IMG/VR virus record: IMGVR_UViG_3300035135_002933
Source: a virus
Reading direction: 5' to 3' (one strand)
Length of the DNA stretch: 64,000 nucleotides
Below are positions 36,741-51,741 of the stretch, in pieces (position 1 is the first letter of the stretch; each line of letters starts with the position of its first letter). The position numbers and the translations under genes are program-made. The notes beneath the pieces were generated by a model. It saw only the letters and a list, made by a program, of their open reading frames with translations, was not told where the DNA came from and made no database searches.

Positions 36741-37376
36741 TTACCAGATAGGCACTTCTTCTACTTCTACACCTTCTATAGCGAAAGCTAACGTACCCGA
36801 TTGTTTACAGATTCGCACACGTTGATACAGTGTAAAGTAATTTAGATCTAGTTCGGTGCACAAGCTACGCATATTGTACAGTGCGCCGTTGTAACGATAC
36901 ATAGTATGAGTAACGTTACCTATAACAGTTTCTTTTTCTTTTAATGCTTTTGATGTAGCTTGCTTTAAGCTTGCGCTAATTTTAGGTTTACTAGACTTTC
37001 TAGGTTTAGCTACTCCTTTTTCGTCGCGTCCGTTATCATCTGCCCATCCCAGAATTAAGTCTCCTGTATCGGTGTGCCTTACGACCATATGACCTGGGTC
37101 CTGCCCGTACTTTAAGTAGTAAACAATACGATGCGTATAGAAAAGTCCATGATCATACACAGTTACTAACCATTTAGCTCCAGACTTACTACCTGCGGGT
37201 TTCCCAGCTTTGGCCACACCTCTGTTCACTTTCCACACGAGACCGGAAGGTGAGCTGTCAGATACCTCGAACAGCTCCCTAACCACCGGGGGGATAGGAC
37301 GTGGACTGCCCTGTGCGTTGAGGGCGTAGGGAACATCCGTCAGTGGCAGGCACAGTTGGTAGGTCTGTGAGGGCAT
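36741..37376 (-). CDS. HNH homing-endonuclease-like protein, possibly degenerate
   Basis: SGLVWK...THRIVYYLKYG..PGHMVVRH; shortened HNH loop; C-terminal YNG..LCTELDLNYFTLYQR; AT-rich. Confidence 0.6.
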   Translation of the reverse strand: MPSQTYQLCLPLTDVPYALNAQGSPRPIPPVVRELFEVSDSSPSGLVWKVNRGVAKAGKPAGSKSGAKWLVTVYDHGLFYTHRIVYYLKYGQDPGHMVVRHTDTGDLILGWADDNGRDEKGVAKPRKSSKPKISASLKQATSKALKEKETVIGNVTHTMYRYNGALYNMRSLCTELDLNYFTLYQRVRICKQSGTLAFAIEGVEVEEVPIW

Positions 37377-37472
37377 CGGAGGCTGTCGGAATCTCCTCAA
37401 TATACCCCCTAGTAAATTTCACATATATTAAAAAATCTCTAGCCAGTAATATGTCGCGCTAGATGTACCCCC

Positions 37473-37551
37473 GTCTCACCGCGACGCAAGGCGAGACTCA
37501 GGGTGAGACTCACTGAGACTCACAGCCCTGCAATGAGACTCAAGAGACTCA
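37473..37551. repeat. cluster of GAGACTCA octamers
   Basis: Five direct copies starting 37493, 37505, 37515, 37535, 37544, plus inverted GTCTCA at 37473. Confidence 0.9.
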
Positions 37552-37561
37552 GCCAAGACGC

Positions 37562-37590
37562 TTGACCTTTGCGCCAGGCTGTGCCAGACT
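37562..37590 (+). promoter_or_regulatory. candidate promoter P1
   Basis: TTGACC-17-CAGACT preceded by TG. Confidence 0.45.
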
Positions 37591-37657
37591 GAGCTCACGC
37601 GCGCACATCATGCGCGTTTCCGTCTTGCGTGGCAACCTGCCGACTCGTGCGGCTGGC

Positions 37658-37688
37658 TTGACGCAATCCGCGGAACCCGTGATAGGGT
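37658..37688 (+). promoter_or_regulatory. candidate promoter P2
   Basis: TTGACG-19-TAGGGT with extended TG; same layout as P3. Confidence 0.55.
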
Positions 37689-37693
37689 TGGTT

Positions 37694-37836
37694 CACAACC
37701 GAAGGGCCCCGGGGAGCGCTGCTCCCGCGGACGGCGCTCCGGTTGTGCCTGCACCTGGACAACCGAGCACCTTTGCCCTTACGGGCTGCGGCTTTGCTGC
37801 GCCCGTAGGTATGGGACGCGGCCATCGCGTGATGGC
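37694..37836 (+). ncRNA. candidate structured RNA segment 1 (hairpin, boxA-like motif, hairpins)
   Basis: CACAACCG/CGGTTGTG, TACGGGC/GCCCGTA, GCCATC/GATGGC stems; GCACCTGGACAACCGA at 37751. Confidence 0.45.
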
Positions 37837-37921
37837 GCAACTGAGCCGATGGCAGGCTGTGACGTTGCGGTTTCCCCCGGACCCTTTATGGGAATTCCGG
37901 AACGATCGAACCCCTAGGGGG

Positions 37922-37952
37922 TTGACAGATCGAGCGGCAGGCGTGCTAGGGT
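37922..37952 (+). promoter_or_regulatory. candidate promoter P3
   Basis: TTGACA-19-TAGGGT with extended TG. Confidence 0.6.
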
Positions 37953-37959
37953 CAGGGCA

Positions 37960-38154
37960 TGCCCGGAGCGATCCGGGCAGAACCTAGGAAACCGAATAGG
38001 ACTAGTGGCGCGGGCAGAGCCCGGCCAGCCGGCGCGGCCGATGGTAGGCGTGGTGTGACAGACCACGCCGAAACGTAGGCGATTCGTGTCAGGTGAACCG
38101 TGCGGATGGCACAAGGCAGAGATGCTGCGTGCGTGGATGCTCCCTAGTCCTTTT
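37960..38154 (+). ncRNA. candidate structured RNA segment 2 (about 195 nt)
   Basis: TGCCCGGA-GCGA-TCCGGGCA hairpin; boxA-like 37980-95; GGACTAG/CTAGTCC long-range stem; GGCGTGGT/ACCACGCC; ends in TTTT. Confidence 0.55.
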
Positions 38155-38161
38155 GGTAGTT

Positions 38162-38759
38162 GCGCAGTTGCAATAGGACTGCGCGAACCTTGATAACAGA
38201 ATAGTTGTGAGATTTGCCCTCTTCATGCCAGCTAACTTGCTCTGGTTGTAGGAAGCCCGCGAGGGGCTGCTGTAGGCATTCTGTGCCTACATTGCGGCGG
38301 TTCGACGTCCTATGTTTGCAATGGCAAATCTTCTCTATTCCGCACGCATAGTGCGCATAGCTTCCGCGTATAGGATTACTGCCGGTAAGGTTGCCGGGTG
38401 TGACAGTATCCCTATTCGTATTGCGTAAGACGTGATCTAACGGGCCATGCTCGCCGAATTAAGTAGGCCTTGGCTATACTTTATCGTTCGATAACTGTAG
38501 GGACTTCAGGTGCCCTACTACGACGGCAAGGTATAGCCAAGACGAAGTTAAGCACCCTGTAATCACGTTCTAACTGTGGCCTTTCTCCTGGGTTACTCAT
38601 ACCCGGCAGACGCGCGGCGCCTCCCGCGCGTTAGAAGTTTGCTCAAGGCTTTGCGCCTGGTCTGTATGGGATAGTGCTTCGAGCACTACATTCAGACCCG
38701 CGTACAAACCATCTCCCCCAAACATTCCCCCAGGCGCACTGCGTCCGGGGGTTGTTTGG
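38162..38759 (+). ncRNA. candidate large ornate ncRNA (about 600 nt)
   Basis: More than 10 nested perfect 6-11 bp stems and possible pseudoknots (see findings); no credible ORF. Confidence 0.65.
38185..38200 (+). promoter_or_regulatory. rrn-type boxA-like antitermination motif after a boxB-like hairpin
   Basis: GCGCAGT/ACTGCGC hairpin followed by GAACCTTGATAACAGA; sister copies at 37751 and 37980. Confidence 0.65.
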
Positions 38760-38800
38760 CTGAGGTGCTTTGCATCTCGTGTCCTCAAGCTGTAACCAGC

Positions 38801-39019
38801 ATGCGTTTCAATTCCCGCCGGGCTGATGTCCCTGGCTACCTCGAGTTCCTCTGGGTTGAGAAAGATCTCCCCGAGGGCGTCAACCCCCAGGCCATCGCCC
38901 TCATCACCGACACCGCCGACGGCCGTTTCCACGGCATGTACGGCCTGGTCACTGTGGCCGGCCCCACCGTTTCCGCAGTCAAGGCAGAGCTCTGCCGTCT
39001 GATCGAGGCCGGCCAATGA
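38801..39019 (+). CDS. hypothetical early protein
   Basis: ATG 38801, GC3-biased; ATGA-coupled to the next gene. Confidence 0.55.
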   Translation: MRFNSRRADVPGYLEFLWVEKDLPEGVNPQAIALITDTADGRFHGMYGLVTVAGPTVSAVKAELCRLIEAGQ

Positions 39020-39378
39020 GCTACTCCCACCGCAGTGCCTGGCACGCCTTCCTTGTGACGGAAGGTCACGGCCCCGGCACCCGTCTCAGCAACGACTTGC
39101 TGGACCGCATCCGTCAGGACTGGTATGCCTTCCGCGAACAGGCGGAAGCCATGGGCTTCGATGCCGTAGAGCACCGTGCCACAACCATCGACTCATCCGA
39201 GGGCGATGAGTGGGACTATGCCGCCCATGACTTCATCCTCACCCGGAACCACCATGGTGCCGGCTTCTGGGATGGCGACTGGCACGCCCCCTGGGGCGAC
39301 CGCCTGACTGCGTTAGCCCACACCTTCCCCCAACTTGAGAGCTATCTCGATGACGACGACATCCTCTGCCTCTACTGA
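39016..39378 (+). CDS. conserved phage hypothetical protein
   Basis: HDFILTRNHHGAGFWDGDW motif. Confidence 0.6.
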   Translation: MSYSHRSAWHAFLVTEGHGPGTRLSNDLLDRIRQDWYAFREQAEAMGFDAVEHRATTIDSSEGDEWDYAAHDFILTRNHHGAGFWDGDWHAPWGDRLTALAHTFPQLESYLDDDDILCLY

Positions 39379-39527
39379 CGCCCGCTACGCCAAATCCCTC
39401 GAAGTCTGGCGCCTGCTGTTCGAAGCCGAACAGCTCATCATCGGCGACGCTGACTACAGCGCGGCCGCACCGCACCTGTCCAATGTGCTGGACTTCGTTT
39501 CTACACTCCAAACCCGTCTCGAATCCC

Positions 39528-51613: not shown

Positions 51614-51645
51614 GCCCTACCCTTGGGTCGGAGCTGAAGCGTTTG

Positions 51646-51672
51646 AGCCGGGGGTGGTGTCCCGGCTTTTTT
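51646..51672 (+). terminator. rho-independent terminator closing the early operon
   Basis: AGCCGGG-N8-CCCGGCT followed by a T run. Confidence 0.8.
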
Positions 51673-51741
51673 GTGCTTGCGCCGCCCGCTACACTGCGGT
51701 ACAGACCGGTAACAATCCGTCTGCACCCGTAAGCTAAAACC

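Follow-up and report, generated by a model that had tools for sequence, protein, structure and literature searches.

The stretch of viral DNA considered here (IMG/VR record IMGVR_UViG_3300035135_002933; its whole length of 64,000 nucleotides (nt) is called the window below) contains, within 1.4 kb lacking credible open reading frames (ORFs) (37400–38800), three short motifs that resemble the boxA of the ribosomal RNA (rrn) operons of picocyanobacteria. With a probability of about 0.6, we think that these phage copies of boxA recruit the Nus machinery of the host rrn operons for making and folding two structured RNAs (RNA1 and RNA2). We infer Nus binding and what it does to elongation, folding and processing, as well as the places where transcription starts and any carry-over into the genes downstream. 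The features involved are the following.

37658..37688, plus strand: P2, extended −10 promoter-like site, TTGACG-N19-TGaTAGGGT, with the same layout in the related locus L003
37694..37747, plus strand: 5′ hairpin of module A in boxB-like position (−39.8 kcal/mol, z −3.1), ending 3 nt before motif 1
37751..37766, plus strand: boxA-like motif 1, leader type, with the core GCACCTGGACAAC at 37751–37763, unpaired in the minimum free energy (MFE) fold
37922..37952, plus strand: P3, extended −10 promoter-like site, TTGACA-N19-TGcTAGGGT, with a conserved −35 block
37960..37979, plus strand: 5′ hairpin TGCCCGGA-GCGA-TCCGGGCA in boxB-like position (−18 kcal/mol, z −3.9), ending 0 nt before motif 2
37980..37999, plus strand: boxA-like motif 2 with a D4-like GAATAG, first boxA of the cassette, one base from the Trichodesmium leader boxA
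37980..38160, plus strand: RNA1, predicted rod-like structured RNA closed by a leader–trailer helix (37991–38005 with 38144–38157)
38160..38184, plus strand: hairpin GCGCAGT/ACTGCGC (−17.6 kcal/mol, z −3.4), ending 0 nt before motif 3
38185..38204, plus strand: boxA-like motif 3 with a D4-like GAATAG, spacer type, second boxA of the cassette, matching in sequence the boxA of the internal transcribed spacer (ITS, between 16S and 23S)
38199..38700, plus strand: RNA2, predicted structured non-coding RNA of about 0.5 kb after the second boxA, with shared signatures

The original prediction had placed three 16-mers in this region, and GCACCTGGACAACCGA (37751–37766), GAACCTAGGAAACCGA (37980–37995) and GAACCTTGATAACAGA (38185–38200) are indeed present there on the plus strand. 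In cyanobacterial spacers, the elements are named boxB–boxA–D4 after Iteman et al. 2000 (as the naming is used in PMC8461337), with boxA reading GAACCTTGAAAA and D4 reading CTGCATA (PMC8461337). Host sites were collected by scanning a boxA–D4 pattern over 185,579 species genomes, which led to cyanobacterial rrn loci. Aligned with these, the phage motifs are genuine look-alikes of both the leader and the spacer types of host boxA. The leader-type boxA, 5′ of 16S, reads GCACCTGGACAAC in Synechococcus CS-1330, GAACCTGGACAAT in Synechococcus UW140, GCACCTAGAAAAT in Prochlorococcus and GAACCTAGAAAAC in Trichodesmium. Motif 1 agrees with that of CS-1330 at every position (13/13) and motif 2 matches that of Trichodesmium at 12 of 13 positions; the leaders of UW140, Prochlorococcus and Trichodesmium differ at the same positions as the phage copies do. 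The ITS site of picocyanobacteria, GAACCTTGACAACTGCATAG, is found in CS-1330, UW140 and Prochlorococcus. Motif 3 agrees with it at 17 of 20 positions including D4 (12/13 over the core), and the copy at position 4453 of L007, a related phage, at 19 of 20. Of the 121 genomes of the family of CS-1330, 34 contain the exact 13-mer of motif 1, mostly in one to three copies each, and four of the six host sites retrieved are rrn leaders, 400–500 nt upstream of 16S. The order in the phage, leader-type boxA first and spacer-type boxA last, is that of the rrn operon, and the arrangement of a hairpin followed by boxA, which had been claimed for cyanobacterial rrn, is present in both host leaders and host spacers.

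Beyond about 22 nt of motif, we detect no similarity to host rrn, and a captured fragment of a host rrn operon is ruled out since the homology stops there. As a statistic, the degenerate consensus given earlier for the three motifs is circular, and a pattern derived from host sites only (GMACCTDGAMAAY, at most one mismatch) was used instead. It finds exactly these three sites in the 64 kb, with 1.2 expected over the whole window (both strands, 128 kb). Taken alone, that count is unremarkable (three sites are reached in 8 of 100 shuffles) and it is what a functionless resemblance, whether accidental or left over passively from host rrn DNA once captured, would lean on. The three sites, however, lie on one strand, within 450 nt, in the only long non-coding stretch, where about 0.004 would be expected by our arithmetic, which is far beyond chance. 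Each has a hairpin before it, the motif is kept in relatives while its flanks diverge, no rrn homology flanks it, and the pattern is enriched in IMG/VR; nor do the IMG/VR matches listed carry the rRNA signatures that a chimera with host DNA would bring. We regard a functionless resemblance as extremely improbable.

A strong hairpin had been said to lie 0–3 nt before each motif; folding gives gaps of 3, 0 and 0 nt, and all three hairpins are far more stable than shuffled sequence. The MFE folds leave the 13-nt cores of the motifs unpaired, and shuffled cores find downstream complements just as good (123–282 of 300 shuffles equal the real ones), so that the cores would be single-stranded next to a boxB-like hairpin. 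The original prediction also had the first two motifs following promoters. Upstream of them, P2 and P3 do read TTGAC(G/A)-N19-TGnTAGGGT, with motifs 1 and 2 about 65 and 30 nt 3′ of the respective site, but a simple sigma-70 scan calls neither. The −35 block of P3, GGTTGACAGATC, is invariant across the homologous units of the window, L007 and L004, and L003 has TTGACC-N19-TGcTAGGTT upstream of its copy of motif 1. If P2 and P3 are promoters, the transcript would start with the hairpin, and boxA would be its first single-stranded sequence. Motif 3 is preceded by the closing helix of RNA1 and a hairpin, and not by a promoter, in agreement with the earlier description.

Motifs 2 and 3 belong to a cassette with the order promoter-like site, 5′ hairpin, first boxA, RNA1, trailer, second boxA and RNA2 (about 0.5 kb). 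We analyzed eight such units: those of the window, L007 and L004 and of five further IMG/VR loci (L221, L252, L255, L300 and L301), four of which have no detectable protein similarity to the window. RNA1 is 150–205 nt long across the units (about 180 nt in the window). The hairpin before the first boxA is present in all eight with differing sequences, and in seven of them no other stretch of the cassette is as well conserved as the second boxA. For the pairing across RNA1, the 30 nt from the start of the first boxA were set against the 48 nt 5′ of the second. The mean duplex energy is −30.0 kcal/mol when a unit is set against its own trailer and −18.9 kcal/mol when it is set against those of other units. 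The own trailer is the best partner in five units and the second best in two, and the pairing is recognized in seven of the eight. Position 2 of boxA pairs as A–U six times and as C–G twice, and position 7 as U–A, C–G or A–U; compensatory changes occur at positions 2, 7 and 14. RNAalifold independently recovers the same helices in the eight units, with 85% of the cells paired compared to 26–41% when the partners are slid, and 17 pairs are changed on both sides (none of 500 shuffles reaches any of the measures). In Prochlorococcus, the reverse complement of boxA–D4 occurs about 3 kb 3′ of the spacer boxA, between 23S and 5S (L108:7747–7765, and likewise L138, L141 and L167). Because this complement lies directly 3′ of 23S, boxA is part of the 23S leader–trailer stem there, and the phage use of a leader–trailer helix is thus copied from the host.

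Such pairing could be all there is to the motifs: copies of the host pre-rRNA stem at which host RNase III, Mini-III or another maturation nuclease would cut out RNA1 and RNA2, with no role for Nus factors. The compensated pairing of the first boxA with the trailer in seven of eight units speaks for it, as does the host boxA–D4 being the 5′ strand of the 23S stem and the first helix of RNA2 having the D4-like GAATAG of the second copy as its 5′ strand. A helix needs no fixed sequence, however, and contigs without any proteins in common still keep the core. In the window, the trailer pairs only with the 3′ half of motif 2 and the bases that follow. Motifs 1 and 3 lack a downstream complement, and the second boxA copies of L007, L221 and L300 and the single-copy leader of L248 likewise have none better than chance; the single-copy leader of L224 has one slightly better than chance (40 of 300 shuffles). 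Since cores without a better-than-chance complement are nonetheless the most conserved part of the units, the conservation points to recognition as a single strand, and NusB–S10 reads boxA as a single-stranded sequence according to PMC3177189. The boxA sequence is thus probably more than the strand of a helix. Processing alone appears an unlikely account; it is compatible with recruitment of the Nus machinery and does not exclude it.

A role at the level of DNA, as a −35-like box or an operator bound by a regulator of the phage or the host, would fit copies in relatives that read GAACCTTGACAA, which contains TTGACA, and a region that has other repeated elements resembling protein sites (the GAGACTCA repeats). 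On reading the sequences of the eight units, however, we find no consistent −10 element 16–19 nt 3′ of the motif, and the second boxA was rejected as a −35 box because none follows it. All copies lie on one strand, 3′ of promoter-like sites, their variable positions covary with an RNA partner, and the match to the host reaches into D4, an RNA feature. We hold a DNA element to be very unlikely.

The RNAs of the cassette have relatives of their own. The RNA2 signatures GTAGGAAGCCCG.GAGGG and GCCGAA...AGTAGGCC are shared by the window with L004, L221, L300 and L301 and occur only behind boxA pairs. Relatives of RNA2 also have GTTAGTTACA repeats, and the contigs sharing it include some without proteins in common with the phage of the window. 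In RNA1 (38030–38080 in the window, 13760–13860 in L301, and in L300, L252 and L255), the unit GCCGATGGTAGG-hairpin-GAA(G/A)(T/C)GTAGGC is present once or twice, accompanied in relatives by GATGGCAGGC-hairpin-GAACGTGAGCGG. Loop E of bacterial 5S rRNA reads GAUGGUA/GAGAGUA, and the internal-loop units of RNA1 resemble it; the 5S model of Rfam gives no match. With Rfam, nothing is found at gathering scores over the whole window, and nothing credible at E ≤ 10 on 37400–38900 or at E ≤ 5 on four related loci. In 401 cyanobacterial genomes, the RNA1 signature GATGGTAGG...GTAGGC is no commoner than its reversed control, and we found no host homologue.

Because its layout and its use of a leader–trailer helix mirror host rrn, the cassette is, as far as sequence can tell, a scaled-down rrn operon. 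It shares with cyanobacterial rrn a core that is identical or within one base, the hairpin directly upstream, the D4-like tail, the leader type followed by the spacer type, and the use of boxA as 5′ strand of a long-range helix that encloses a structured RNA. The enclosed RNAs differ, being 0.15–0.2 kb and about 0.5 kb long and unrelated to rRNA, without tRNAs; the cassette also has promoters of phage type and no flanking homology. Going further, one could imagine a mobile miniature rRNA operon that passes across unrelated phages, whose products would be made, folded and trimmed by the host machinery of ribosome biogenesis (Nus complex, RNase III) and act as RNAs, for example as decoys or scaffolds for ribosomal proteins or assembly factors. 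The decoy or scaffold idea stems from the two internal loops of RNA1 that resemble 5S loop E. We see this extension as quite doubtful; if true, the cassette would show a role of boxA in a bacterium without Rho.

The conservation of the motifs was followed in 99 IMG/VR loci, found by using the first conserved rightward gene and the sigma factor as queries. Two blocks are kept in most relatives, 37466–37660 (repeats and the promoter-like site P1) and 38698–38800 (a long hairpin in a 5′ untranslated region (UTR)), and the 0.75–1.0 kb between them are wholly replaced among relatives. The motif is not generally conserved in close relatives: 21 distinct versions with the same flanks and the same early genes have no boxA-like site. 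Because of these, boxA belongs to particular RNA cassettes and is not a requirement of the early operon. The relatives that do carry it are L003 and L060 (homologues of module A), L004, L007 and L009. In L003 and L060, motif 1 is fully conserved while the preceding hairpin changes; in L060, the hairpin differs in sequence but is kept as a hairpin. Compared with L020, L022, L005, L026 and L040, the segment 37660–38700 looks like a swap site for cassettes of promoter and structured RNA. Most relatives have other RNAs without boxA at this site, one example being a long hairpin whose loop reads CTAGGCCTCAGGCCA.

In IMG/VR as a whole, the boxA–D4 pattern occurs in at least 116 stretches, against 12 for the reversed pattern, and is thus at least 10-fold enriched. 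The matches listed range from 20 to 65% in G+C, and rRNA signatures are absent from all 116. Of the 102 distinct matches listed, 23 have a sigma-70-type promoter match no more than 130 nt upstream, as compared to 9.1% of positions drawn at random from these loci (p = 4e-5). This enrichment suggests that many phages, of many hosts, place an rrn-type boxA in their early leaders. In another group of phages (IMG/VR loci L224, L233, L241, L248 and L254), arrays of CACTGTTTGAGTT-type repeats precede a structured leader ending in ACAGTGAGCGGAGC; a single boxA–D4 comes after this leader, and then about 150 nt of folded RNA immediately 5′ of a protein gene. Among the genomes, GAACCTTGA(A/G)AACCGGATA is found 117–223 nt 5′ of 16S in Actinomycetes, in Coriobacteriia-type genomes and in Bacillota (L105, L131, L134, L145, L177 and other genome loci). 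Given these sites near 16S, the boxA dialect extends beyond cyanobacteria, and phages of several phyla are probably among the IMG/VR matches.

Four metatranscriptome libraries, each of a different study, contain contigs that are 90–95% alike to the window and cover 37976–38774, and one of them covers also 37681–37804. Together they span motifs 1–3; they show neither ends nor strand. Their similarity starts at motif 2, with a different upstream hairpin (GCCGG-AAGGG-CTGGC), and they diverge in sequence at 38774. Position 38194 is A or C in these contigs, both of which are host variants at that position of boxA. The four runs give no contig cover over 38874–39400 or 37400–37530, a gap which is no evidence either way.

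In the mechanism that we favor, recruitment of the host Nus machinery, the three motifs would be working copies of the host boxA, transcribed from the tandem phage promoters P2 and P3. Host NusB and S10 (NusE) would bind boxA on the nascent RNA, NusA and NusG would join, and the host RNA polymerase would become an rrn-type elongation complex, fast, resistant to pauses and terminators, and acting as a chaperone of RNA folding. Such a complex would make the untranslated RNA1 and RNA2, and the leader–trailer helix around RNA1, with the first boxA as 5′ strand (as boxA–D4 is for host 23S rRNA), would form a natural processing site of RNase III type. For the rrn complex, roles in elongation speed, in suppressing pauses and intrinsic termination, and in the co-transcriptional folding and processing of the leader–trailer helix have been discussed (PMC10250234, PMC13753749). 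Cyanobacteria have no Rho (PMC12642595), and no strong intrinsic terminator was found between the motifs and 51645. The likely benefits would therefore be speed, suppression of pausing and of intrinsic termination, folding and processing. What is least certain in the earlier interpretation is antitermination as known from E. coli, and read-through into the rightward genes is possible.

Several points weigh against recruitment of the Nus machinery. Without Rho, the classical reason for a boxA is absent in these hosts, and in the literature searched we found no experimental work on the binding of cyanobacterial NusB/S10 to boxA. For the uncultured freshwater cyanophage of the window, the likely host, similar to Synechococcus or Cyanobium, is itself assigned indirectly. 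P2 and P3, and the starts expected from them, are predictions. Motif 2 differs from the host-derived pattern at position 9, and the leader–trailer duplex of the window is the weakest of the eight (−22.2 kcal/mol, matched by 11 of 300 shuffles). The 21 relatives with the same flanking blocks do with other RNAs and no boxA, and the cultured cyanosiphoviruses S-CBS4, CL131, S-CBS3 and KBS-S-2A lack the boxA pattern. The RNA-library contigs lend weak support to expression of the cassette, since DNA can occur in such libraries and contigs are no proof of transcription.

In E. coli, the rrn antitermination complex forms on boxB–boxA–boxC with NusA, NusB, NusE, NusG, SuhB and S4. The phage arrangement is similar in the hairpin followed by boxA, the tandem promoters, the untranslated structured product and the proposed role in leader–trailer folding (PMC10250234, PMC13753749). 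In B. subtilis rrn, boxA comes immediately after a 5′-terminal hairpin and is bound by NusB (PMC13753749). The E. coli boxA, UGCUCUUUAACA, differs from the dialect of the phage, whose likely host is without Rho.

The use of a host boxA by phages is textbook knowledge for lambda and is documented for T7. To our knowledge, it has so far always been found in E. coli, with escape from Rho as its purpose. In T7, boxA lies 3′ of the early promoters A0–A3 and its mutation has a phenotype (Savalia et al. 2010, as described in PMC3709561). T7 is thus, like the phage proposed here, a lytic phage with a host-type boxA behind early promoters for the host polymerase, but its boxA precedes protein-coding early genes, whereas the window has three boxA copies, with a structured RNA between two of them; the two systems also differ in host and in boxA dialect. 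In lambda, boxA and a hairpin (nutL and nutR) recruit Nus factors on the nascent RNA (PMC2800207). The pairing of boxA with a hairpin in nascent RNA is alike in the two systems, but in lambda boxA precedes boxB and the phage N protein binds the boxB loop, whereas in the phage cassettes boxA follows the hairpin, whose sequence changes from unit to unit. A lambda-type nut site, boxA followed by a conserved boxB together with an N-like protein, is not what the phage motifs present. Pfam and PHROG scans of the larger rightward ORFs name no Nus-type factor; N-like peptides were not searched for as such, and short ones would escape.

Borrowing of boxA is thus known for lambda and T7; what is new here is the cyanobacterial host group, the boxA dialect, and the architecture in which two boxA copies and a leader–trailer helix surround undescribed RNAs. 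No paper linking boxA to cyanophages was found in the literature searched. Here, a signal of host type is tied to non-coding RNAs in phages of hosts without Rho. If it works, the cassette would offer a compact natural test bed for what Nus factors and boxA do beyond antitermination, namely speed, co-transcriptional folding of a long-range helix and coupling to processing. A recurrent pair of undescribed phage RNAs, present in environmental RNA libraries, is also brought to attention. As the dialect matches the rrn leader of one picocyanobacterial family, it is a possible marker for host prediction.

The remaining features are given below.

37562..37590, plus strand: P1, TTGACC-N17-CAGACT, promoter-like by sequence, within a block kept in nearly all relatives
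38705..38772, plus strand: long hairpin within the 5′ UTR that precedes the first rightward gene (ATG at 38801), −47 kcal/mol, z −5.0
51645..51678, plus strand: strong site resembling an intrinsic terminator, with a 9-bp stem (6 GC pairs) followed by TTTTGTGCTT

The block 38698–38800, which contains the long hairpin, is 83–91% identical in most relatives, with boxA present or absent and whichever RNA cassette precedes it. The terminator-like hairpin and T run at 51645–51678 end a rightward block of 12.8 kb; they lie 3′ of a dCTP deaminase-like gene and 5′ of the genes for a small HTH protein and the large terminase. An ORF of 141 amino acids (37562–37987) is treated as spurious, its start codon being the TTG of the −35 box of P1; neither it nor the four other ORFs of the region have a PHROG match, and the region gives no blastn match to GenBank phages.

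The window has the gene set of a tailed phage, with a family A DNA polymerase containing an intein, a primase-helicase, a sigma-70-type sigma factor, the large terminase and a portal protein. The portal protein is nearest to that of Synechococcus phage S-CBS4 (38% identity), followed by Aphanizomenon phage CL131, and the sigma factor to those of Synechococcus siphoviruses. The DNA sequencing runs containing the stretch are metagenomes from wetland, lagoon, estuary, pond and freshwater. To the right of the non-coding stretch, a long series of plus-strand genes begins at 38801; to its left are the sigma gene and, on the minus strand, an HNH endonuclease gene (phrog_99, 36741–37400), which stands between the sigma gene and the regulatory region. 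The distance from the end of the sigma gene to the conserved block is 729 nt in the window and about 70 nt in L020 and L022, and because of this difference the HNH gene looks like an insertion.

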